DNA from: Candidatus Saccharimonadota bacterium
GTDB lineage: Bacteria > Patescibacteriota > Gracilibacteria > UBA4473
Assembly (NCBI GenBank): GCA_020632335.1
Contig: JACKFV010000001.1
Location: 180,001-212,000, forward strand
Reading direction: 5' to 3'
DNA: 32,000 nucleotides
Shown here: in pieces, positions 19,836 to 31,306 of the stretch
Numbering within the stretch: the stretch's first letter is position 1
How the letters are laid out: each line of letters opens with the position of its first letter
Notes under the pieces: generated by a model
What the model was told of the DNA's origin: nothing
Seen by the model: the letters and a program-made list of their open reading frames with translations, nothing else
Database searches by the model: none
Position numbers and translations under genes: made by a program

Positions 19836-20936
19836 TCACCCTGCGGATTGTGACTGTCTGTGTTTGTTCGCACTATAGCGCAGATAGCTATCAATCCCGC
19901 TGGTGTCCAGTTTACCAGCATCAGGGGGCAAGAGAGTAGTCAAAAAACTATAGAGCGCCTCAGGCGTCTTCCCCTGAGTATATATGATTTCTTGGAGATT
20001 AAGAGAATCACCATTTATTTCCAGGATGTCAGCCAAGATGCTCTCAGCAGTCATGCCAGCATGCTCTGGTTTTGCCAAGTATGCTTGTACATATGACTGT
20101 ACAGTATCATATTTTGCGTGGGTTTCTGGTGCCTGCACCCCAAGGGGATCTGCCTCAGGTGCCACTCCCCCCAGGTTATTTCCCTCTTCATCCTCCCATA
20201 ATCGTATTTTTATGGGCGCCCCTCCTGCTATATGGTAGATCTCTTCTCTCCCATTACGATACACATGTACAACGGGGTCTACTGCATCTAACGACATTTC
20301 ATCAGCCGGCGTCTCCTTCCCGTACTTTATTGCCTCTCCGCCTGCTATGGGGTAGATCTCTTCCTTCCCATCACGCTCCACAATTACATAATTGTTATCT
20401 CCAGATATGATAATCCAATCAGCCGTCGTCTGCCCCCCATACTTTATCGCCTCTCCGCCTTCTTTGGGGTAGAATTCTACCTTCTCACCACGCTGCACAA
20501 TTACATAATTGTTATCTCTAGATATGGAAATCCAACCAGCCGTCGTCTCCTTCCCGTACTGTATCGCCTCTCCGCCTCCTGTGGGGTAGGCTTCTTTCTT
20601 CCCATCACGCTCCACAATTACATAATTTTTATCTCTAGATATGGAAATCTTATCAGCCGTCGTCTGCCCTCCATACACTATGGCCTCTCCTGTGAAGGTG
20701 TCATAGCACACCCTCTTGCCGTTTTCCTCCCGTACCTCATACCGCTCCGGGACTTCTCTTCCGTCTTTTGCCTCAGTAGCAGCCGCAGCAGCCGCTGGCG
20801 ACGACTCCGCGTCACCCACAGCAGCGCCTGCTAGGTCCTTATTGACCTCCTTATCAAGTGAGGCTAAGTCCTCCATAGGAGAGTACGGTTGTTCTACCGC
20901 ATTAGTGCCATGATCGATAGTGAGATTTTCATTCAT
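19836..20936 (-). CDS. hypothetical protein with ~5 tandem 39-aa repeats (GGEAIKYG..TTADWI.ISRDNNYVIVERDGK.E.YP)
   Basis: 366-367 aa with no signal peptide. It has an acidic, Ala-rich N-terminus, the repeats, then a helical C-terminal domain of about 110 aa. The second ATG (20936) sits 6 nt after a GAGAAT -10. The DNA is visibly AT-richer than its neighbours. Confidence 0.8.
   Translation of the reverse strand: MNENLTIDHGTNAVEQPYSPMEDLASLDKEVNKDLAGAAVGDAESSPAAAAAATEAKDGREVPERYEVREENGKRVCYDTFTGEAIVYGGQTTADKISISRDKNYVIVERDGKKEAYPTGGGEAIQYGKETTAGWISISRDNNYVIVQRGEKVEFYPKEGGEAIKYGGQTTADWIIISGDNNYVIVERDGKEEIYPIAGGEAIKYGKETPADEMSLDAVDPVVHVYRNGREEIYHIAGGAPIKIRLWEDEEGNNLGGVAPEADPLGVQAPETHAKYDTVQSYVQAYLAKPEHAGMTAESILADILEINGDSLNLQEIIYTQGKTPEALYSFLTTLLPPDAGKLDTSGIDSYLRYSANKHRQSQSAG
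20262..20729 (-). repeat. tandem 117-bp coding repeats (4 clear units; degenerate copies extend to ~20180-20741)
   Basis: The block CACAATTACATAATT recurs at 20379, 20496 and 20613, exactly 117 bp apart. Units are roughly 80% identical by eye. Confidence 0.85.
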
Positions 20937-20942
20937 CATTGG

Positions 20943-21102: not shown

Positions 21103-21176
21103 GGCCAGGTAGCTCAGTTGGTTAGAGCGTGACACTGCCAGCGTCAAGGTCACAGGTTCGAGTCCTGTACTGGCTA
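21103..21176 (+). tRNA. tRNA-Gly (anticodon GCC), no encoded CCA
   Basis: Hand-folded cloverleaf. The D arm is GCTC-AGTTGGTTA-GAGC. The anticodon arm is TGACA-CTGCCAG-CGTCA, with the anticodon at 21137-21139. The T arm is ACAGG-TTCGAGT-CCTGT. The acceptor is GGCCAGG/ACTGGCT with a G1-U72 pair and a G7-A66 mismatch, and the discriminator is A. Confidence 0.8.
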
Positions 21177-21244
21177 CAAATATGAGGGTGCCGATATAAT
21201 GGCAGCCTCTTTCCTTTTGCTGCATTTTCTACTAGAATAGGGCT

Positions 21245-22477
21245 ATGTGGCGTACGCTTCTCTCCCTCGCGGTGCACTCTATAGAGTCTAACCGCAAGCG
21301 TACCGTACTGACGCTGCTGGGCATTGTGGTGGGGACGCTCACCCTCATATTGGTGCTCAGCCTGGGTAACGGCCTCCAGCAGATCATCTATCAGCAGCTG
21401 GGCAGCCTGGCGTCGGATAACGTCTATCTGGAGGTCAAGTCGCCCGATACGGTTAAATCCGCAGGGCTGAGCATGCTGCAGATCACCACGCTGGACGAGA
21501 AAGACGAGCAGGACGTGCTGGCGCTGCCCAACGTGCAGCGTGCCTACGGGTGGTATAACGGCCAGGGCAAGCTGCAGTACGGGCAGGGCGAGCAGACCGT
21601 GACCATCATGGCTGTGGGGGCAGACTACGCGGTAGCCAGCGGCCTGAGCATGCAGAGCGGGCGCTTCTACACCCTGGCCGAGAACGCCAGCCAGAAGCGC
21701 GTCATCGTACTGGGGAAGAAGCTCGCCGCGGAGGTGTCTCCTCAAGGAGAGGCAGGCGCCATAGGCCAGACCGTCAAGCTACTGGGCAAGAGCTTCACCG
21801 TGGTGGGGGTGCTGGCCGAGCAGGGCACGCAGGGCTTCTTTGACCCAGACAAGGGCGCTTACGTCCCCGTGAAGACCGCACAGAAGCAGCTCTTCGGTAT
21901 AGACCACTACCAGGCCATTGTGGCCCAACTGCTGGATATGGAGCAGGCCGATAAGACCATCTGGCAGATGACACAGATCCTCCGCCGCAACCACCACATC
22001 ACTGACCCCGCCAAGGACGACTTCCGCATCACCAGCTATGATGAGGTCCTCAGCATCGTGGGTGACATCACCGGGGGGGTCTCACTGTTGCTGGGGGTGA
22101 TAGCCGGTATCTCGCTGCTGGTGGGGGGGGTGGGTATCATGAATGTCATGTACGTCACGGTGGCCGAACGCACGAAAGAAATCGGCCTGCGCAAGGCTCT
22201 GGGAGCTCCTGAGGCTAGCATCATGCGTCAGTTTCTCATCGAGGCGGTGCTCGTTACCGCGCTGGGCGGCGGCCTGGGGGCGGTGCTGGGGGTGCTGATG
22301 GCCTGGGGGCTGAGCGTCGTGGGGGGGCACTTTGGCTATGGGTGGGCGTTTGTCTTCCCCTGGGAGGCGGTGGGCATCGGCATGGGGACGGTCCTGCTGA
22401 TCGGCTTTGTCTTCGGCTACAGTCCGGCGCGGCGGGCCAGCCTGCTCGACCCCATCACCGCCCTACGCAGCGAGTAG
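21245..22477 (+). CDS. ABC transporter permease, MacB/FtsX family
   Basis: 410 aa. An N-terminal TM helix is followed by a large periplasmic MacB-like domain and a C-terminal FtsX 3-TM bundle with the motif ERTKEIGLRKALGA. TAGAAT ends 6 nt before the ATG. Confidence 0.9.
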   Translation: MWRTLLSLAVHSIESNRKRTVLTLLGIVVGTLTLILVLSLGNGLQQIIYQQLGSLASDNVYLEVKSPDTVKSAGLSMLQITTLDEKDEQDVLALPNVQRAYGWYNGQGKLQYGQGEQTVTIMAVGADYAVASGLSMQSGRFYTLAENASQKRVIVLGKKLAAEVSPQGEAGAIGQTVKLLGKSFTVVGVLAEQGTQGFFDPDKGAYVPVKTAQKQLFGIDHYQAIVAQLLDMEQADKTIWQMTQILRRNHHITDPAKDDFRITSYDEVLSIVGDITGGVSLLLGVIAGISLLVGGVGIMNVMYVTVAERTKEIGLRKALGAPEASIMRQFLIEAVLVTALGGGLGAVLGVLMAWGLSVVGGHFGYGWAFVFPWEAVGIGMGTVLLIGFVFGYSPARRASLLDPITALRSE

Positions 22478-22508: not shown

Positions 22509-22946
22509 ATGACGCCCCTGCAACTGGCCCTCGAGGACTCCTGGGAGCCGCCCATTCCCTTCCTCCGGCTCGAGCATCTCCTCCGCGACAGGGGCTCTGT
22601 CTATAGCGCTACGGCCTGGAGGATAACCCATAGCAGCGACTTTCCACCGCTCCTGCAGCAGCTGAGGCAGACCAAGCAGTACGCCAAGGCCACGCACCAC
22701 AGCTCCGCCCTGCGGGTAGCCGAGCAGCCCGGGGTGCTCTATGAGACCAAGCAAGACGATGGCGAGACCGGCGCTGGTATGGTGATCCTCCGGCAGCTGC
22801 GGGCCAGTATGGCGGTGAATATAGCCGTGGTAGTGACCCGATGGTACGGCGGTACACGCCTGGGCACGGACCGCTACCGCCATGTACAAGACGCCACGCA
22901 GCAGCTCCTGGCCCAGTTGCGTGCCTCGGCCACAGCGCTAGACTAG
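22509..22946 (+). CDS. yigZ: IMPACT/YigZ family protein (UPF0029 domain only)
   Basis: 145 aa. KATHHSSALRV...DDGETGAGMVILRQL...NIAVVVTRWYGGTRLG matches the YigZ N-terminal domain pattern. Confidence 0.82.
   Translation: MTPLQLALEDSWEPPIPFLRLEHLLRDRGSVYSATAWRITHSSDFPPLLQQLRQTKQYAKATHHSSALRVAEQPGVLYETKQDDGETGAGMVILRQLRASMAVNIAVVVTRWYGGTRLGTDRYRHVQDATQQLLAQLRASATALD
22917..22944 (+). promoter_or_regulatory. putative leaderless promoter TTGCGT-N16-TAGACT-N6-ATG inside the yigZ 3' end
   Basis: The -35 is at 22917-22922, the -10 at 22939-22944, and the ATG at 22951. Confidence 0.45.
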
Positions 22947-22950
22947 CCCC

Positions 22951-23868
22951 ATGCACCTGCACGCCGCCATCACGCAGTACCTCCGCTACCAGCAGCAGCT
23001 GCGCAACGCCTCACCCCATACCCTGCGCAACTACTCCCGCGCGCTTGCATTGCTGGAAGAAATAGCCGGGCCAGAGACGCCCCTCTCCGAGCTCTCGTTG
23101 CAGACGATAGACCACTACCGCGACGCCCTCTTTGCCAAGCAGACCCCCAGCGGCCAGCCCATCGCGCGCCGCACGCAGAACCTCTACCTCAGCGCCGTAC
23201 GGTCATTTCTCCGCTACGCTGTCACGCGGGAGCTCAGCCCCATGCAGCTCTCCCCCGACAAAGTAGAGCTGGTGAAACTCGCCCCCACAGACGTCACCGG
23301 GCTCACTCAGCGGGAGCTCCAACAGCTGCGCGACTACACCGAGCCCGACCCCGTGAAGGACGCCCGTGACCGCCTCATCATCGAGCTGCTCTATAGCACC
23401 GGGCTGCGCGTAGCAGAGCTCCACCGGCTGAACCGCCTGCAGGTCGCGCACGATGTACACGAGCTCAGTATCCTCGGGAAGGGGAAAAAACGGCGCGTCA
23501 TCTACCTCACCCCCCGCGCCAGAGCCGCCATAGAGGCCTACTTCCACCAGCGCCGTGACGCCTATATTCCCCTCCTGCTGAGCCTCCGAGAGACCAAAAA
23601 CGACCTCCTCCATCAGGGCGAGAACCGCCGCCTGAGCACCGTGAGCATCGAGAAAATCGTGCGAGACCGGGCGCGGCTCAGTGGCATCACCCGCACCGTG
23701 ACCCCGCATACGCTACGGCATACCTTTGCTACCACGCTGCTGCGCAATGGCGCCGACCTCCGCAGCGTGCAAGAACTCCTCGGCCACAGTAATATCGCCA
23801 CCACGCAGATCTACACCCACGTGGTCAACGCGGACCTGCGACGCACGCACCAGCAGTATCTGGAGTAG
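22951..23868 (+). CDS. tyrosine recombinase, XerC/XerD family
   Basis: 305 aa. An N-terminal SAM-like domain is followed by the catalytic region with RLIIELLYSTGLRVAEL, HTLRHTFATTLL and LGHSNIATTQIYTHV (the R..HxxR..Y pattern). Confidence 0.9.
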   Translation: MHLHAAITQYLRYQQQLRNASPHTLRNYSRALALLEEIAGPETPLSELSLQTIDHYRDALFAKQTPSGQPIARRTQNLYLSAVRSFLRYAVTRELSPMQLSPDKVELVKLAPTDVTGLTQRELQQLRDYTEPDPVKDARDRLIIELLYSTGLRVAELHRLNRLQVAHDVHELSILGKGKKRRVIYLTPRARAAIEAYFHQRRDAYIPLLLSLRETKNDLLHQGENRRLSTVSIEKIVRDRARLSGITRTVTPHTLRHTFATTLLRNGADLRSVQELLGHSNIATTQIYTHVVNADLRRTHQQYLE

Positions 23869-24394: not shown

Positions 24395-25393
24395 CTAGGC
24401 GCTCGCCACCCGCAGCCCCAGCTCCACCAGGCGGTTAGAGTAGCCCCACTCGTTGTCGTACCAGCTGAGCACCTTCACGAGTGTGCCGCCCTGCACCATG
24501 GTCTGCTCGGCGTCGATGATGCTACTGCGCGAGTCTTGCTTGAAGTCCGTACTCACCAGCGGCAGGGTGCTGAACCCCATGATGCCCGGCATCTGCCCCG
24601 CCGCCGCCTGGAGCGCCCCATTGACGGCCTCTACGGTAGTGGGGGTCTTGACCACCGCGGTGAGGTCTGTGATGCTGACCGTAGGCGTAGGTACCCGCAG
24701 GGCTATCCCGCTGAGCTTGCCATTGAGGTGCGGGAGCGTGAGCCCCACCGCCTCGGCCGCACCGGTAGAAGTCGGGATGATATTCAGCGCCGCAGCGCGT
24801 GCCCGGCGGGGGTCCTTATGCGCGGCGTCCAGCAGATTCTGCGTATTGGTATAGCTGTGCACGGTGGTCATCAGCCCCTGCACAATGCCAAAGCGATCAT
24901 CGAGCACCTTGGCCAGGGGTGCCAGGCAGTTGGTGGTGCAGCTGGCGTTGCTGTAGAGGTGGCGGCCGCTCTGTATCTCGCCCTCGTTCACCCCCAGTAC
25001 CACGGTAGTGAAGCCCTCGCTCTTGGCCGGGCTGCTCAGCACTACCTTGCGTGCGCCACTGCTGAGGTGCGCCTCTACCTGCTCAGCCTTACGGAAGACC
25101 CCCGTGCACTCCAGCACCACGTCTATCTGCAGGTCCTTCCACGGGAGGTCGCTGATGTTGCGCTCGGAGTAGTAGCGGATGCTCTGCCCGTTTACCTCCA
25201 GGCTGCTGGGGGTGCTGCTGACATTGCCCGGGTAGGGCCCGTAGTTGGAGTCATAGGCAAAGAGCTGGGCGCTCAGGTCACTGCTGAGCAGGTCGTTGAT
25301 GGCCACGAGGGTGGCGCCCGGGTGCTGCTGGAGGATGATACGCGCGGCACTGCGGCCAATGCGTCCGAAACCATTGATGGCGATGCGAGTCAT
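24395..25393 (-). CDS. gap: type I glyceraldehyde-3-phosphate dehydrogenase
   Basis: 332 aa. It has INGFGRIGR, the active site SNASCTTNCLAP, and a C-terminal WYDNEWGYSNR. Confidence 0.96.
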   Translation of the reverse strand: MTRIAINGFGRIGRSAARIILQQHPGATLVAINDLLSSDLSAQLFAYDSNYGPYPGNVSSTPSSLEVNGQSIRYYSERNISDLPWKDLQIDVVLECTGVFRKAEQVEAHLSSGARKVVLSSPAKSEGFTTVVLGVNEGEIQSGRHLYSNASCTTNCLAPLAKVLDDRFGIVQGLMTTVHSYTNTQNLLDAAHKDPRRARAAALNIIPTSTGAAEAVGLTLPHLNGKLSGIALRVPTPTVSITDLTAVVKTPTTVEAVNGALQAAAGQMPGIMGFSTLPLVSTDFKQDSRSSIIDAEQTMVQGGTLVKVLSWYDNEWGYSNRLVELGLRVASA

Positions 25394-25485
25394 GAGAAGG
25401 TGCTAGCACCTCTAGCCTACAGGATTTATCTGTCCCTGGCGAGGAAAGTCTGTTGTAAAGAGAGCCAGAGAGCATGAAAACATAC

Positions 25486-25513
25486 TTGACACAATAAATA
25501 AAATATGTATTAT
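25486..25513 (+). promoter_or_regulatory. putative strong promoter TTGACA-N16-TATTAT at the left edge of the AT-rich island
   Basis: The -35 is at 25486-25491 and the -10 at 25508-25513. Confidence 0.5.
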
Positions 25514-25519
25514 GAGAAA

Positions 25520-25650
25520 GTATCCGATACAAAAGGATACGCTGCTCTCTTACAATTCATCAGAAGGATAAAAAATGCGAGTGAAGAAATACTCCAGCAC
25601 AGAGTAACGCTTCTTGGTTGGGGTATTTCTTCACTTATTTATTCATTATT
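25520..25650 (+). other. structured 5' leader or small RNA
   Basis: It begins with a 5' hairpin GTATCC-N9-GGATAC (25520-25540). A perfect 12-bp inverted repeat follows: GTGAAGAAATAC (25581-25592) and GTATTTCTTCAC (25623-25634). A U-rich run follows at 25635-25650. Confidence 0.4.
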
Positions 25651-25670
25651 AAAAACGAAATTCAAAAAAG

Positions 25671-26225
25671 ATGAAACAGATTATCAATTATTTTCAGAAT
25701 ATATTTAAAGCTATATTCTGTCCGTGGGCAATCGAAGCCCGACGCGTTGTCATATTTGAGCTTGATGATACAGGTTCACCTCAATCTCCCCAATCTCCCG
25801 AATATAACCCTGAGAAAATCACTATGGCTAAATTTATAGCCCTATATTGGGAAAAAGTTCAAGATTATTCAGACCGAAATCGTAAAGAACGTATTGAGAA
25901 TGGGCAGGCCGACTGGACCTCCCTGCAAAAAATTATAGACATGTTTTCTGGCGAAGCATACGCTAGAAATTTAAATCAGCCATTATCATTTTATTTAACT
26001 AAAGTAGCTGAAATGAATACATTAGAAGACAGAATAAAGCTCTATAATCTATCATTTTTAGCCTTTGATTTATTAGAGGAATTACTAGCAGAATTACCAG
26101 GAGAACTCCGGATACTTTTCATGAATGCATTTGAATTATATGATCCAAATGCACCAGAAACTCCCCTTACTCCTGTGGATACGGAAAACGATACTGCGGA
26201 TACAAGTAATGAAAACTTCTGCTGA
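25671..26225 (+). CDS. orphan hypothetical protein (184 aa) encoded in AT-rich DNA
   Basis: It is the longest open frame in a stop-codon-rich AT-rich segment. It has AT-rich codon usage unlike all neighbours, and I recognise no motif. An alternative start is ATG 25824. Confidence 0.6.
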   Translation: MKQIINYFQNIFKAIFCPWAIEARRVVIFELDDTGSPQSPQSPEYNPEKITMAKFIALYWEKVQDYSDRNRKERIENGQADWTSLQKIIDMFSGEAYARNLNQPLSFYLTKVAEMNTLEDRIKLYNLSFLAFDLLEELLAELPGELRILFMNAFELYDPNAPETPLTPVDTENDTADTSNENFC

Positions 26226-26342
26226 TGTTTATGAAAATGGTCATAGCGGTGTTGTGGGAACTATCCCACTAATTCCATAGATCATAAAGAGCAATGCTAG
26301 TGGAGTAACTTGTTATCTCCGCTCAGCAAAAAACAATTAAAG

Positions 26343-26375
26343 CCTTGGTATTAATTACTTACCAAGGTTTTTTTT
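26343..26375. terminator. rho-independent terminator, probably bidirectional
   Basis: CCTTGGTA (26343-26350) pairs with TACCAAGG (26360-26367) and is followed by T8. An A-run lies upstream. It sits between the convergent ORFs 25671..26225(+) and 26397..26555(-). Confidence 0.8.
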
Positions 26376-26396
26376 CGTACACCATAGATCCCTCCA

Positions 26397-26555
26397 CTAG
26401 CGGCACCGCAGGCCGTGCTGCTGTGCCAGTGCTGCGCGTCGCAGGCGTGCTTTGGCTTTATTCCGCTTCTTGGCGCCGCTCACATGGCTGCCCTTACTCT
26501 TGTGCCACTCGCCATAGACGTTGGGGCCTTTGCTGCTGCTACTGCGATTGGTCAT
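26397..26555 (-). CDS. small basic protein (52 aa), below the ORF-track length cutoff
   Basis: Hand translation gives MTNRSSSSKGPNVYGEWHKSKGSHVSGAKKRNKAKARLRRAALAQQHGLRCR. Third positions are mostly G/C, TATAGT ends 8 nt before the ATG, and the terminator lies 22 nt after the stop. Confidence 0.5.
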   Translation of the reverse strand: MTNRSSSSKGPNVYGEWHKSKGSHVSGAKKRNKAKARLRRAALAQQHGLRCR

Positions 26556-26598: not shown

Positions 26599-26626
26599 TT
26601 GTCAAGCATGTCTGCGGCACTACGCT
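26599..26626 (+). promoter_or_regulatory. putative leaderless promoter TTGTCA-N16-TACGCT-N6-ATG
   Basis: The -35 is at 26599-26604, the -10 at 26621-26626, and the ATG at 26633. Confidence 0.45.
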
Positions 26627-26632
26627 CTCTCC

Positions 26633-27142
26633 ATGCACTTCTATCGCCCAGCCGCACTTGCAGATGCTCCCGCGCTGGCAGAGATACATAACCGCGCTAC
26701 CGAGCGGTACAAAGAGGTCTACACCCCCGCAGAATGCGCCGAACGCGGCTATGTTCTCAGCACCGTAGACGACATGCTGGCGATGCTCGAGAGCCGAGAA
26801 ATCCTCTGTGCTGAGGAGGATGGGCAGCTGCTAGGGTATGCCGCGTATCGGCTCAAGCACCCCTCCACCGTGTGGGTGTCGTCCCTCCATGTAGTGCCCG
26901 AGGCGCAACGCCGGGGCATAGGCGCGGGGCTCCTGCAGCGGGTAGAGGACTGGGCACGCGCGCAGCAGGCCGTGGTAGTGGCGCTGGAGACGGACCAGCG
27001 CTTCCTCTGGGCGGTAGCGTTTTATCAGCGGCAGGGCTACCAGACCATGACCGACGAGGCCCTCGCCCTCCCGCCATACCAGCACGTGCTGGGGAAACCG
27101 CAGGTCCCCGGGCGGTATATCTTTGTGCGGCGGGTCAGCTAG
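26633..27142 (+). CDS. GNAT family N-acetyltransferase
   Basis: 169 aa. The acetyl-CoA binding motif is VVPEAQRRGIGAGLLQRVEDWA (Q/RxxGxG/A). Confidence 0.88.
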   Translation: MHFYRPAALADAPALAEIHNRATERYKEVYTPAECAERGYVLSTVDDMLAMLESREILCAEEDGQLLGYAAYRLKHPSTVWVSSLHVVPEAQRRGIGAGLLQRVEDWARAQQAVVVALETDQRFLWAVAFYQRQGYQTMTDEALALPPYQHVLGKPQVPGRYIFVRRVS

Positions 27143-27148
27143 AGATGC

Positions 27149-29524
27149 TTAGCGCACCACTACCTGCGCAGACGTCTCGGAGATAAGGCCATTGCGGTCG
27201 GTCACCTTAAGCGTAGCGGTGTAGGTACCCGGCTGGGTATAGGTGTGCTTGGGGCGGGTGTCGGTGGAGAGATTCCCATCACCGAAGTCCCACGTGTACC
27301 CATAGATCGTCCCCTCAGACCCGGTGGGGCTGAACTGCACCGTCAGCGGCGCGGCACCTGCAGCAGGCTCAGCAGTCATGCGGGCGCGCACGGCACGGGG
27401 CCGCACGGTGATCCTCGTTACGGTGTCCTTGGTCTTGCCCGCTGCGGTGACGATCTTCAGCCCGATCTCGTACATGCCCACGTCGGTGAATTCATAGCTG
27501 ATCTGCGCGCCATAGCTGATGGGCGACTGCCCCGGCAGGCTCCAGATGTAGTTGACGATAGTATCGCCCTCCTCTGCCCGAGAACCCGACGCGTCAAACT
27601 CCACCCGCAGTGGCACCTCTCCGTTACTCGGGAGGGCGCTGATAGCGGCCCGGATGCTGGCGCCATTCACCTGGACTTTCTGCACCTTCTCATAGACGTT
27701 CTCGTCACTGTCGATGACCTGCAGCTGCACCTCGTAGATGCCCGGGGTGTAGTAGGTGTGCTTCACCACGGGGCTAAATTTATCCACAATCCCATCGTTT
27801 TCGAAGTCCCACTGGAACTCTATGGGGTTATCTATCTGGCTATTGGTCGCGTTGAAGACCACCTCCAGCGGCGCCTCCCCGGTGAGGAATTCTGCGCCGC
27901 CGTGGTCTGGAGTGGTGTCTATCCGCAGCTCTATGTCTTGCACGCGGGGCAGGACTTTCACGGTCTTGACGGCCTCGGCCTTCACCCCGGTGTCGTCCTC
28001 TATCACCAGCTTCACCTCGTACTCGCCCGCGCGGCGGAAGGTCTTCTCGTACTTACGCCCCACAAAGCTCTCCGCGTCCCCCTCCACAAACCACTCGTAC
28101 TTGACGATGCGCCCCACCCGCGCAAACGACGCCGAGCCGTCCAGCACCACGCTCAGCGGCGCCTCGCCCTCCAGGGGGGTCAGCGCGCCTATCTCTGGGC
28201 GGAGATTCTCGTCTGGTGGCAGGACTTCTATGGTCTTCTGCGCGGTAGCAAAGTCGCCATTCCGACCCGTCACGCGCAGGTTCACGATGTAACTCCCCAG
28301 CTGCGTATAGGTCTTCACCACATTCACCAGGTCAATCCCCTGCTCCTCATAGGTGCCGTCGTTGTTCAGATCCCACTCGTAGTAGACGATGTCGCCGTCA
28401 GGGTCGGTCGATTTAGCGGCTGAGAGCTCCACCGAGAGCGGGCCCACCCCACTCTCCGGCGAGGCGATGATATCCGCCGCGACCGACTCATTAGCGATGA
28501 TCACCTGCCGCGGAGCCTCGTACGTCCGCACGGGTGAGAGCGGGTCGCCGGGGTTTTCTCGGTAGGTTACGGTGGCCTTCACGTTATAGACGCCGCCGTT
28601 CTCGCCCAGGTTGAGGAAGCGGTAGGTCACGGTGTCGCCCCGCGCGTCTGTGATGCCATCGGAGTCAAAATCCCACTCGATGCTATTGACGGCATTTTGC
28701 GGCAGCTGCTGGTAGAGCTTGGTCCCGATATCAAAACGCACCAGCACCGGCGCGCTGAGGTTCCGTACGTCTACCGGGTCGGTGATGATCATGGCCTCGG
28801 AGACCTGCTCCCGCGCGGCTACTTGCTGGCGGTTGATCACCATAAAGAGCGCAATCCACAGCCCCCCCATGAGGAGAAACAGCAGGAGGTATAGCACCCC
28901 CCGCCCCAGCCGACCCCGGCGTATCTGCGGGCTGGCCTTGGTATTACTAAAGTACTGGAAGAATTTGATCAGCGTGAGGATGAGCAGCCACAGCGCGATG
29001 AGCCCAAAGATGATATTGGTCATCAGCACCAAAGCGTTCTTCAGCCCCACGCCGTCCAGCCCCAGGGTCTTGAAGAGCGCGTTATCCAGCGAATTACTCA
29101 TCAGCCCCCAGAGCATGAGCCCGTAGAAGGTAAAGACACCGAGAAACAGCACTGCGAGAAAGCCAACCAGCACCCGCTTGACCGTAGCCGACGACGCGGG
29201 AGTACTGCTCGGGGCGGCCACCCGGCGGCGGATTATCCGCTTGCGGCTGCCGTCTGGCATCACCCGTATGAAGGTTTTTTCGGTGTCGCTCTCGCGCTCG
29301 GGCACGTCTACTGCGTCGCCGGCCTGCTCCGCCTGCACCAGCGCGGCGGCCAGCTTCTCCTCCATCGTCATGCCCCCAGGGGTCGTCGTGGTTGCGGGCA
29401 CTGCGGGCTCTGGCTCTGCTGCCGGAGTGGCGCTATTCTCGTCCTCCGCCTGGCGTGGAGGGTTTTGCTGCAGGCTCTCGGGCAGCTGACGAATGCGCTG
29501 ACGGTGCGGGGTATTCTCTTCCAT
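27149..29524 (-). CDS. polytopic membrane protein with at least six extracytoplasmic PKD domains
   Basis: 791 aa. A charged N-terminal region of about 115 aa is followed by 3 TM helices and repeated PKD signatures: WDFDSDG, YEWDLNNDG, FQWDFENDG and YTWDFGDG, each followed by a ...Y....G.Y.V.L.V.D pattern. Confidence 0.9.
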   Translation of the reverse strand: MEENTPHRQRIRQLPESLQQNPPRQAEDENSATPAAEPEPAVPATTTTPGGMTMEEKLAAALVQAEQAGDAVDVPERESDTEKTFIRVMPDGSRKRIIRRRVAAPSSTPASSATVKRVLVGFLAVLFLGVFTFYGLMLWGLMSNSLDNALFKTLGLDGVGLKNALVLMTNIIFGLIALWLLILTLIKFFQYFSNTKASPQIRRGRLGRGVLYLLLFLLMGGLWIALFMVINRQQVAAREQVSEAMIITDPVDVRNLSAPVLVRFDIGTKLYQQLPQNAVNSIEWDFDSDGITDARGDTVTYRFLNLGENGGVYNVKATVTYRENPGDPLSPVRTYEAPRQVIIANESVAADIIASPESGVGPLSVELSAAKSTDPDGDIVYYEWDLNNDGTYEEQGIDLVNVVKTYTQLGSYIVNLRVTGRNGDFATAQKTIEVLPPDENLRPEIGALTPLEGEAPLSVVLDGSASFARVGRIVKYEWFVEGDAESFVGRKYEKTFRRAGEYEVKLVIEDDTGVKAEAVKTVKVLPRVQDIELRIDTTPDHGGAEFLTGEAPLEVVFNATNSQIDNPIEFQWDFENDGIVDKFSPVVKHTYYTPGIYEVQLQVIDSDENVYEKVQKVQVNGASIRAAISALPSNGEVPLRVEFDASGSRAEEGDTIVNYIWSLPGQSPISYGAQISYEFTDVGMYEIGLKIVTAAGKTKDTVTRITVRPRAVRARMTAEPAAGAAPLTVQFSPTGSEGTIYGYTWDFGDGNLSTDTRPKHTYTQPGTYTATLKVTDRNGLISETSAQVVVR

Positions 29525-29987: not shown

Positions 29988-30531
29988 CGATCTCTGCATC
30001 GTCATCGACATGCAACAGGGCTTCCGCTACCCCGAGGCCACCGCTATCCTCCCCCAAGTACAGCAGCTGGTGGAGCGCTTCCCTGGGCAGGTGGTGCTGA
30101 GTCTCTTCCGTAATGAGCCGGGGAGTTTCTTCGAGACCCGCCTCCGGTGGAAGAAGATGCAGCGTGAAGAGGAGAGAGCCCTCATGCCCGAGCTCGACCG
30201 GGCTTTACTCCCGCGGTTCTGGCACAGTGGGTACACGGTGCTCACCCCCGAACTCGTGCAGTATATAGAGGCCTACGCGCCTGATAGGGTCTATATAGCG
30301 GGCATTTATACCGACGTCTGCGTGCTGCACACGGCCCTCAGCGCCGCTGACCACGGGTGGCATACGCTGGTGGTGCGTGACTGCTGCGCGTCGCTGCATG
30401 GCTACCGGCACCACGTCATGGCGCTGGAGACGCTCCTCTATGCGCTGGGAGAGGAATATATGGTGCCGCTGCAGTCGCTCCTCCCGCAGGAAGATTCCCC
30501 CTTGCCAGCCCGTAAAAACGCCCTAGAGTAG
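29965..30531 (+). CDS. isochorismatase-family cysteine hydrolase
   Basis: 188 aa. LCIVIDMQQGF holds the catalytic Asp context, and IAGIYTDVCVLHTALSAADHGW holds the catalytic Cys context. It overlaps the rbfA 3' end by 23 nt. Confidence 0.82.
   Translation: MTKAPHSNDLCIVIDMQQGFRYPEATAILPQVQQLVERFPGQVVLSLFRNEPGSFFETRLRWKKMQREEERALMPELDRALLPRFWHSGYTVLTPELVQYIEAYAPDRVYIAGIYTDVCVLHTALSAADHGWHTLVVRDCCASLHGYRHHVMALETLLYALGEEYMVPLQSLLPQEDSPLPARKNALE
30502..30529 (+). promoter_or_regulatory. putative leaderless ccdA promoter TTGCCA-N16-TAGAGT-N6-ATG
   Basis: The -35 is at 30502-30507, the -10 at 30524-30529, and the ATG at 30536. Confidence 0.45.
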
Positions 30532-30535
30532 GAGT

Positions 30536-31306
30536 ATGACCCTCACGCTACTAGCGTATTGCTTTGGTCTGCTAACGGTACTGGCCCCGTGTGTGCTGCC
30601 GGTGCTGCCGGTGGTCATTGGCGGTACTGTGGCGGGTGAGGGCCGCTGGCGCCCCTATGTCATCACGCTGTCGCTGGGGGTGAGTATTTTCCTCTTCAGC
30701 GTAGGGCTGCAGCTGCTGAGCCGCGTTATATTCATCAACCCCGTGTGGCTGAAGACTGTATCGGTGGTGATTCTCATCGGCTTTGGGCTCATCACGCTCT
30801 TCCCGCAGCTCTGGGAGGGGGCAAAGCGCGTACTGCACCTGCGCGATGGCACCGCGGCTCTCTCCGTTGCAGGGCGTACACCGGGGCTCTGGGGGGCGAT
30901 ACTGACGGGAGCGGCGCTCGGCCCGGTCTTCAATAGCTGCTCACCCACCTACGCGCTCATCCTCTCTACTGTGCTGCAGCAGCAGTTCTGGTACGGGGTG
31001 TGGCTGCTCTTGGTGTATGTCTTGGGACTGAGCACTATTGTGCTCCTCATTGCGGTATACGGCGGCCGACTGATACAGCGGCTGCGCGGCGCGGCAGACC
31101 CTCGCGGGTGGTTCAAGCGCCTCCTTGGGGTCCTCTTTATCCTCGTGGGGGTGATGGTGTGGCAGGGGTGGGATAAGCAGCTCGAGGCCTTTATTATTCG
31201 CCAGGGGTGGTATATAGATACTACCGCACTGGAAGAAACCTCCCTCAGCCCTACGCGTGAGCACCTGCAACGCCAGAAAGCTCCGCCAGGGAACGCTTCT
31301 TCTTAA
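30536..31306 (+). CDS. ccdA: cytochrome c biogenesis protein CcdA / DsbD-family thiol-disulfide transporter
   Basis: 256 aa with 6 TM helices. The conserved Cys motifs are LAPCVLPVLPVV and NSCSPTY. Confidence 0.87.
   Translation: MTLTLLAYCFGLLTVLAPCVLPVLPVVIGGTVAGEGRWRPYVITLSLGVSIFLFSVGLQLLSRVIFINPVWLKTVSVVILIGFGLITLFPQLWEGAKRVLHLRDGTAALSVAGRTPGLWGAILTGAALGPVFNSCSPTYALILSTVLQQQFWYGVWLLLVYVLGLSTIVLLIAVYGGRLIQRLRGAADPRGWFKRLLGVLFILVGVMVWQGWDKQLEAFIIRQGWYIDTTALEETSLSPTREHLQRQKAPPGNASS

Follow-up and report, generated by a model that had tools for sequence, protein, structure and literature searches.

How does a ~0.9 kb islet of AT-rich DNA come to lie between core genes of a GC-rich genome, and does it carry a gene of its own? 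The question is posed by a 32,000-nt stretch of DNA (hereafter the window, in whose positions all coordinates are given) from Candidatus Peribacteria, a GC-rich bacterium of the candidate phyla radiation. G+C content and tetranucleotide usage delimit an islet of ~36% G+C at 25460..26385 on the plus strand, between the promoter region of gap and the 3′ end of a 52-codon open reading frame (ORF) of host composition. We read it as an islet of one gene, acquired laterally from an AT-rich donor, in which a real soluble, acidic, helical protein of 184 amino acids is encoded behind a host-compatible promoter and its expression may be gated by an attenuator. We put the probability of this reading at roughly 60%. 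The parts of which it is composed differ in strength, and they are taken up below in turn.

Composition and Edges of the Islet

The DNA of the islet is foreign to its surroundings in four respects: base composition, tetranucleotide signature, and the usage of codons and of amino acids. In 300-nt windows, G+C falls from 0.60-0.67 to 0.34-0.38 within ~25450-26350. The 951-nt interval as a whole has a G+C of 0.358 against 0.602 for the remaining window, the next-lowest 950-nt window elsewhere stands at 0.485, and across the 32 kb the islet is the sole stretch of at least 200 nt that lies more than 0.17 below the mean G+C. Both edges are sharp when read in 40-nt windows, with a drop from 0.45 (25440) to 0.20 (25480) at the left edge and a rise from 0.40 (26360) to 0.65 (26380) at the right. 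We place the left edge at ~25460 because the region upstream of gap (25394 to ~25440) retains host composition. The tetranucleotide correlation to the host, normalised for base composition, is 0.347 for the islet and 0.622 +/- 0.077 for host windows (z -3.6), and the codon adaptation index (CAI) of the 184-aa ORF relative to host genes is 0.30, against a host mean of 0.68 and a minimum of 0.55. An earlier sequence-only reading of this DNA had described an abrupt switch in composition; sliding G+C, tetranucleotides, and codon adaptation all bear this out, and its hand counts of G+C (15/60 in the line at 25981 and 43/60 in the line at 24601) were exact on recount.

The shift extends to the encoded protein. 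The G+C content at third codon positions (GC3) is 0.29 in the 184-aa ORF and 0.76-0.85 in host genes, and that at first and second positions (GC1 and GC2) is shifted too. The summed fraction of the residues F, Y, M, I, N, and K (FYMINK) is 0.33 in the protein and 0.15-0.22 in host proteins, while that of G, A, R, and P (GARP) is 0.20 as compared with 0.27-0.33. The AT bias is therefore carried by the protein itself, beyond silent sites, which argues for long evolution in an AT-rich genome and not for a de novo origin from host DNA.

Coding Evidence for the 184-Codon Frame

The frame at 25671..26225 on the plus strand is annotated as 'hypothetical protein H6771_01010 [Candidatus Peribacteria bacterium]' (NCBI MCB9809540.1, locus tag H6771_01010) on a 630,865-bp contig, and it is very likely a real coding gene of foreign composition. 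The open frame spans 190 codons and is the sole ORF of at least 100 aa in the islet, the others, on both strands, having 51-84 aa, lengths that chance alone would give. Frames of at least 184 codons appear in 2 of 5000 mononucleotide shuffles of the islet and in 2 of 5000 first-order Markov shuffles, and base use within the ORF depends on codon position (G at 0.29, 0.10, and 0.13 in positions 1, 2, and 3; chi-square p 2.6e-5). At 4.24 times background, the period-3 Fourier signal is matched by 0 of 1000 shuffles, and no such signal was found in the leader or the trailer. The sequence-only reading had judged an unbroken 184-codon frame unlikely to arise by chance, and on these figures it was right to do so. 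The first ATG, at 25671, is the likely start, since the probability that the 51 codons ahead of the second Met are open by chance is only ~0.02. Its upstream sequence is A-rich and holds no Shine-Dalgarno motif. Two ORFs that overlap the main frame, of 67 aa (25505-25708) and 51 aa (26125-26280), were rejected as genes: the longest open frame in islet shuffles averages 73 codons, so their lengths are within chance, and the leader is without periodicity.

Protein Features and Searches for Relatives

The 184-aa protein has a mass of 21 kDa, a pI of 4.4, 30 D+E against 17 K+R, and no transmembrane segment. It begins with an aromatic N-terminus, contains the motif PQSPQSP, and closes on an acidic C-tail that ends in Cys. 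Single-sequence AlphaFold2 predicts an all-helical protein with a disordered acidic C-tail at a confidence too low for use (pLDDT 40 at full length and 50 for residues 47-160), and a Foldseek comparison of the model of residues 47-160 with the PDB returned matches at E>=4.7 only, which we disregarded.

Searches for relatives were broad in scope. A word-indexed search of 5.8 billion clusters returned the protein itself, and exhaustive HMMER against 1.84 billion representatives returned the protein together with one marginal, repeat-inflated match (P0002). Nothing significant came from Pfam, PHROGs, PADLOC, or NCBIfam (Pfam and PADLOC at E<=1), and nothing below E 0.16 from PDB sequences. Phage and plasmid translations and viral and metagenome contigs gave no match by tblastn and DNA scans, nor did phages and plasmids when queried by blastn with the islet DNA, and exact scans of viral and metagenome contigs found neither the leader hairpin nor the terminator described below. 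The earlier statement that the product has no recognised motif or family thus holds for the libraries searched. The marginal match is to a 928-aa DUF285 repeat protein, in which the same 36 query residues align to many repeats; its library-wide E of 3.8e-4 sums six matches of one query stretch to different repeats. Residues 82-118 do resemble ~1.5 units of the 25-residue DUF285 (PF03382) repeat (K-[IV]-x-D-M ... N-Q-P-L ... K-V-x-x-M-N), with the right spacing, but the Pfam model gives no match at E<=1. A custom two-unit repeat profile scored the query at 11 bits (i-Evalue 5e-5 for one comparison), which 0 of 20,000 shuffles reached, the best of them scoring 10.8. Given a target picked post hoc among 1.84 billion, repeat inflation, and a best shuffle at 10.8 against 11 bits, we rejected homology to DUF285 and treat the likeness as an unproven resemblance.

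We note that orphan status is weak evidence here, as neighbours of host composition are singletons too and the host lineage is unsampled: the adjacent GNAT protein finds only itself at E<=1e-10, and a scan of 185,579 species genomes with the gap product, which did not recover the present genome, gave a best match of 57% identity. The sequence-only reading had called the gene the best candidate in the window for something undescribed, which stands insofar as no homologue was found and is overstated in view of these singleton neighbours.

Promoter, Leader, and Candidate Attenuator

A sigma-70-type promoter, TTGACA-N16-TATTAT, is present at 25486..25513 on the plus strand with 11/12 matches, just where the sequence-only reading had placed it. 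Its -35 type and 16-nt spacer are those of host promoters in the window (TTGnCA-N16-TAnAnT), so the host polymerase should use it, and transcription would start near 25520. The TTGACA-type -35 also falls within one copy of a 12-nt inverted repeat, ACATACTTGACA / TGTCAAGCATGT (25480-25491 and 26600-26611, 92% complementary), whose other copy lies between the GNAT gene and the 52-codon ORF, in their divergent promoter region; the pair is probably formed by two unrelated promoters and not by the ends of an element.

The leader that follows, ~150 nt long, is as structured as had been claimed, with a whole-leader fold at z -5.1 against shuffles. A stem-loop (GUAUCC...GGAUAC, 25520..25540; fold -7.9 kcal/mol, z -5.7) sits at the 5′ end of the putative transcript. 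Farther along the plus strand a Shine-Dalgarno-like GAAGGA (25563..25568) stands 6 nt 5′ of a 10-codon mini-ORF, MRVKKYSSTE* (25575..25607), and the mini-ORF starts 4 nt ahead of the stem of a leader hairpin (25579..25636) with 20 contiguous and 4 apical pairs, 4 G.U included, at a predicted -32.7 kcal/mol (z -7.8). The hairpin is stronger as plus-strand RNA owing to the 4 G.U pairs, the minus-strand fold having fewer pairs. In the predicted fold the mini-ORF spans the entire 5′ arm and its stop codon lies in the apical loop, so that a translating ribosome and the hairpin would be mutually exclusive. Immediately 3′ of the hairpin comes the U-rich tract UUAUUUAUUCAUUAUU (25635..25650), a candidate attenuator tail with a putative terminator function. 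A ribosome-binding site followed by a leader ORF that overlaps a hairpin is the arrangement expected of a leader-peptide attenuator, and it is found here as GAAGGA-N6-ATG with 25575-25607 lying over the 5′ arm of 25579-25636. We propose, tentatively, that a ribosome-sensitive leader-peptide/hairpin attenuator may operate upstream of the 184-aa gene.

In such a scheme, transcription from ~25520 would give the 184-aa gene a leadered mRNA, whereas most host genes of the window appear to be leaderless. Expression would be gated by the Shine-Dalgarno-led 10-codon mini-ORF, placed exactly on the 5′ arm of the -32.7 kcal/mol hairpin and followed by the U-rich tract. A ribosome on the mini-ORF close behind the polymerase would block the hairpin and allow read-through into the 184-aa gene; without a ribosome on the mini-ORF the hairpin would form, leading to termination or to a long double-stranded cleavage site.

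Ribosome-mediated leader-peptide attenuators act at the level of transcription (pyrBI-type) or of translation (erm/cat-type). The islet resembles them in having a short Shine-Dalgarno-led leader ORF on one arm of a stable hairpin upstream of a gene, and in that translation of the leader ORF and formation of the hairpin would exclude each other. It differs in several respects. The start of the gene downstream lies 35 nt beyond the hairpin and is not sequestered by it, and no alternative anti-terminator pairing was identified in the leader. MRVKKYSSTE has neither a run of regulatory codons nor a match to known stalling peptides, the gene downstream is not a known resistance or biosynthetic gene, and the leader is conserved in no second sequence. 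Among the Rfam 15 covariance models no match in the islet reaches its gathering score, a tRNA (21103-21176) being the one hit in the window that does; the best sub-threshold match in the islet, under permissive thresholds, is to the His leader (22.4 bits, E 0.51, where the gathering score is 49).

Trailer and Terminator

After the stop codon of the 184-aa gene (26223-26225), a 150-nt trailer folds into three hairpins on the plus strand (3′ untranslated region (UTR), z -6.4). The first two lie at 26237-26285 (-17.9 kcal/mol, z -2.7) and 26295-26328 (-14.3 kcal/mol, z -4.0), and the third belongs to an intrinsic terminator at 26339..26375, whose stem (26339-26371; -14.9 kcal/mol, z -5.5) overlaps a T8 run (26368-26375). 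The hairpin-plus-T8 terminator of the sequence-only reading is thus present, with its stem now placed at 26339-26371; it was absent from the output of a pattern scan because its loop is 9 nt. With its own promoter, leader, coding ORF, and terminator, the islet is the self-contained unit that had been described. Read on the minus strand, the terminator hairpin is followed by the T-rich tract CTTTAATTGTTTTTT and may also end the convergent 52-codon ORF. That ORF (26397-26555, minus strand) is of host composition and encodes the very basic peptide MTNRSSSSKGPNVYGEWHKSKGSHVSGAKKRNKAKARLRRAALAQQHGLRCR; its stop codon and the islet's right edge are ~12 nt apart, and a TATAGT box stands 8 nt upstream of its ATG. 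It has no family match, and the Logan annotation does not list it among the genes.

Host Context and Putative Leaderless Promoters

The flanking genes, namely gap (24395-25393, minus strand), a GNAT acetyltransferase (26633-27142), an XerC/D-like recombinase (22951-23868), and a 791-aa PKD-repeat protein, are all of host composition. The last of these (27149-29524, minus strand) has an N-terminal membrane region and at least 5 PKD domains, and is probably a surface protein of an episymbiont-type bacterium. Another gene that may be foreign, and older, is a 367-aa ORF (19836-20939, minus strand) without a family match that adjoins tRNA-Gly (21103-21177, the sole tRNA in the window); its values are intermediate, with a region G+C of 0.49, a GC3 of 0.48, and a CAI of 0.44 against the host mean of 0.68.

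The host genes of the window show a promoter arrangement of their own. The box TA[GC]A[ACG]T-N6-ATG occurs 8 times in the window, against 0-1 occurrences for each other spacing from 0 to 15, and by eye a TTGnCA hexamer stands 16-17 nt upstream of the -10-like box in 6/7 cases. Examples are found at 22929-22953, 21223-21247, 26611-26635, and 30514-30538 and, on the minus strand, upstream of 17020, 2095, and 9271. A -10 box 6 nt before the ATG, together with TTGnCA, is the signature of leaderless mRNAs from sigma-70-type promoters, and its recurrence suggests wide use of leaderless mRNAs in this Peribacteria genome. At another Peribacteria locus (L008) there is a similar N6 peak for TANNNT (14 against ~4-6), and at a further locus (L037) there is no such peak. 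Our literature search found no paper that links Peribacteria with leaderless transcription. The ~150-nt structured leader of the islet departs from the host pattern.

Origin of the Islet and Alternative Explanations

Of the marks of a lateral AT-rich ORFan islet, foreign composition, the lack of a homologue outside the genome, and a real ORF are found here. On our favoured reading, ~0.9 kb of DNA would have evolved in an AT-rich genome and now lies upstream of gap, between genes of a GC-rich Peribacteria genome. In keeping with earlier studies, ORFans exceed other genes in AT content and are shorter (PMC3514957). The islet is like other AT-rich ORFans and acquired islets in being short, far more AT-rich than its host, without relatives, and set between core genes. 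It differs from them in the extremity of the contrast (~25 points of G+C, GC3 0.29 against 0.8), in its host, a candidate-phyla-radiation bacterium, in its unusual completeness (consensus promoter, structured leader, terminator), and in being known from one genome. We class it with the known AT-rich ORFans, as a neat and well-documented case in an unusual host, and not as a new type of system.

A precedent comes from other Peribacteria-like genomes. A 152-aa gene at locus L008 (7251-7709) has no known family in Pfam or NCBIfam and forms an AT-rich patch of its own; it belongs to a family of 149-152 aa with further members at L083 (6001-6453) and L086 (6001-6450). The genes have a G+C of 0.39-0.41 against 0.52-0.56 for the locus in two GC-richer genomes, and the third genome is natively low in G+C (0.38). 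The homologues of the L008 gene are 68% and 54% identical to it and lie at unrelated loci, with DNA similarity that stops at the ORF ends. Solitary AT-rich genes thus move among such genomes. The 184-aa gene is alike in being a small AT-rich gene without a family that forms a single-gene patch in a GC-richer genome, but its protein shares no sequence similarity with the L008-type product, and it has no homologues, whereas the L008-type gene occurs in three genomes.

Several points weigh against acquisition of a functional, attenuator-gated gene. No donor, homologue, or second copy was found in any collection searched, and even this absence counts for less than it might, the host lineage itself being unsampled. 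The searched collections hold no close relative that would show the islet to be absent elsewhere, and the two other Peribacteria loci that we retrieved are not syntenic with the gap-GNAT region. The boundaries of the islet carry no direct or inverted repeat of at least 6 nt, no tRNA, and no adjacent recombinase; target-site duplications, terminal repeats, and a recombinase of foreign composition were likewise sought at the islet and not found. The left junction has no independent confirmation, as Logan look-ups of the orphan, of gap, and of a 145/139-aa neighbour gave no record. The lack of a Shine-Dalgarno motif at 25671 leaves in doubt whether and how the 184-aa ORF is translated in this host. 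As for the attenuator, it is proposed from a single sequence with no covariation, its U-tract is interrupted, and the base of the leader stem is A-U rich.

It is unlikely, in our estimate, that the 184-aa gene is instead a native lineage-specific gene, long kept AT-rich (for example, for regulation or nucleoid-protein binding) and an orphan only through its unsampled lineage. Such an origin would agree with the singleton status of the host-composition neighbours (the GNAT protein with itself alone at E<=1e-10, the gap product at best 57%), with a promoter that follows the host pattern down to the 16-nt spacer, with the lack of insertion scars, and with the L008-type family, whose AT-richness persists between copies that are 68% identical. 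A native gene, however, would have had to keep amino acids, GC1, GC2, and composition-normalised tetranucleotides all shifted under a host GC pressure that brings GC3 to ~0.8, which is hard to maintain. The long leader is unlike the leaderless host pattern, and the presence of the L008-type gene at unrelated loci fits transfer, not inheritance.

We consider it very unlikely that the locus makes RNA alone and the ORF is incidental, be the product the structured 3′ region, an RNA of ~115 nt that extends from the promoter through the leader hairpin and U-tract, or both. The leader (z -5.1) and 3′ UTR (z -6.4) are indeed far more stable than shuffles, the hairpin and U-tract could terminate a short transcript, and the main ORF lacks a Shine-Dalgarno motif. 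Set against this are the strong coding statistics of the ORF and the failure of any Rfam model to match, permissive thresholds included (His leader, 22 bits against 49). Moreover, an attenuator would yield just such a pair, a coding mRNA along with a short leader RNA, so the two are compatible.

A chimera of assembly or binning, through which a piece of DNA from an AT-rich organism entered a Peribacteria contig, would explain why the composition switches abruptly at both ends, and it could draw on the unconfirmed left junction and on the record of the 184-aa protein solely in the NCBI assembly. The right junction, however, is independently assembled: a Logan contig from a single run (SRR12358675) starts at window position 26230, matches 5771 nt with 0 mismatches, and crosses from AT-rich into GC-rich DNA. 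Host DNA lies on both sides within the 631-kb contig, so that two chimeric joins 0.9 kb apart would be needed, and the islet fits neatly between the host promoter region and the end of a host ORF, with a terminator that can serve both strands. We regard a chimera as highly improbable. The Logan assemblies of the organism, which was also found in run SRR12358676, are fragmentary, and the contig that carries the Xer gene ends short of gap; no paper naming these runs was found in our literature search.

We give equally little credence to the idea that the islet is the last gene left by the decay of a larger mobile element, such as a prophage, an integrative element, or a cassette array. Foreign composition, a tyrosine recombinase (22951-23868) 1.6 kb to the left, and tRNA-Gly with an intermediate-G+C gene 4-5 kb to the left speak for it. 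Against it, the recombinase resembles XerC/D and has the codon usage of the host (GC3 0.83), host-composition genes intervene before the islet, no phage, plasmid, or PHROG similarity and no repeats at the edges were found, and the unit is complete from promoter to terminator rather than truncated. An integron gene cassette, which would consist of a promoterless ORF and an attC site (RYYYAAC/GTTRRRY cores) close to an integron integrase, was rejected in view of the islet's own consensus promoter, the lack by eye of a GTTRRRY core at the right edge, and an XerC/D-like recombinase of host composition, and a replication origin was rejected in view of a single DnaA-box-like 9-mer, a skew without inversion, and the presence of a coding ORF.

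Possible Function

The sequence-only reading had offered a defence, toxin, or immunity role as an example of what the gene might do, and this suggestion finds no support. A component of a known or candidate defence system should match a PADLOC model, and the protein matches no PADLOC family at E<=1. A toxin-antitoxin or immunity pair would call for a partner, and there is no adjacent partner gene, the islet's neighbours being gap and GNAT, both of host composition, and no Pfam or NCBIfam match. Neither toxin-like features nor mobile-element scars were found at the islet. It is improbable that any specific function we could name for the 184-aa protein would prove correct. With low confidence, we guess that it may work by binding to some other macromolecule, in the manner of an inhibitor or of an accessory protein of the immunity type, and may not be an enzyme; both structure models are of low confidence (pLDDT 40 and 50), which counts against the functional side of our reading. 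A bolder idea, and in our view a long shot, is that the protein would be the founder of a family, so far undescribed, of small, acidic, helical proteins. Its members would pass among candidate-phyla-radiation bacteria or their phages in cassettes of one gene that regulate themselves (promoter, leader-peptide attenuator, gene, and terminator), and the 184-aa protein would serve as an inhibitor or immunity factor against phages or neighbouring cells, in a host whose other mRNAs are mostly leaderless.

Implications

The islet resolves no long-standing question. If our reading of it as a laterally acquired single-gene unit is true, it is a compact example of a reduced, GC-rich candidate-phyla-radiation genome gaining a foreign gene together with its own regulatory signals, and it would offer a defined target for expression and structure work, consisting of a promoter, a leader, and a single protein of 21 kDa. 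Host genes that appear to be leaderless stand in contrast to an islet whose transcript would have a long structured leader with a Shine-Dalgarno-led mini-ORF, and this contrast could reveal whether such hosts can translate canonical leadered mRNAs.

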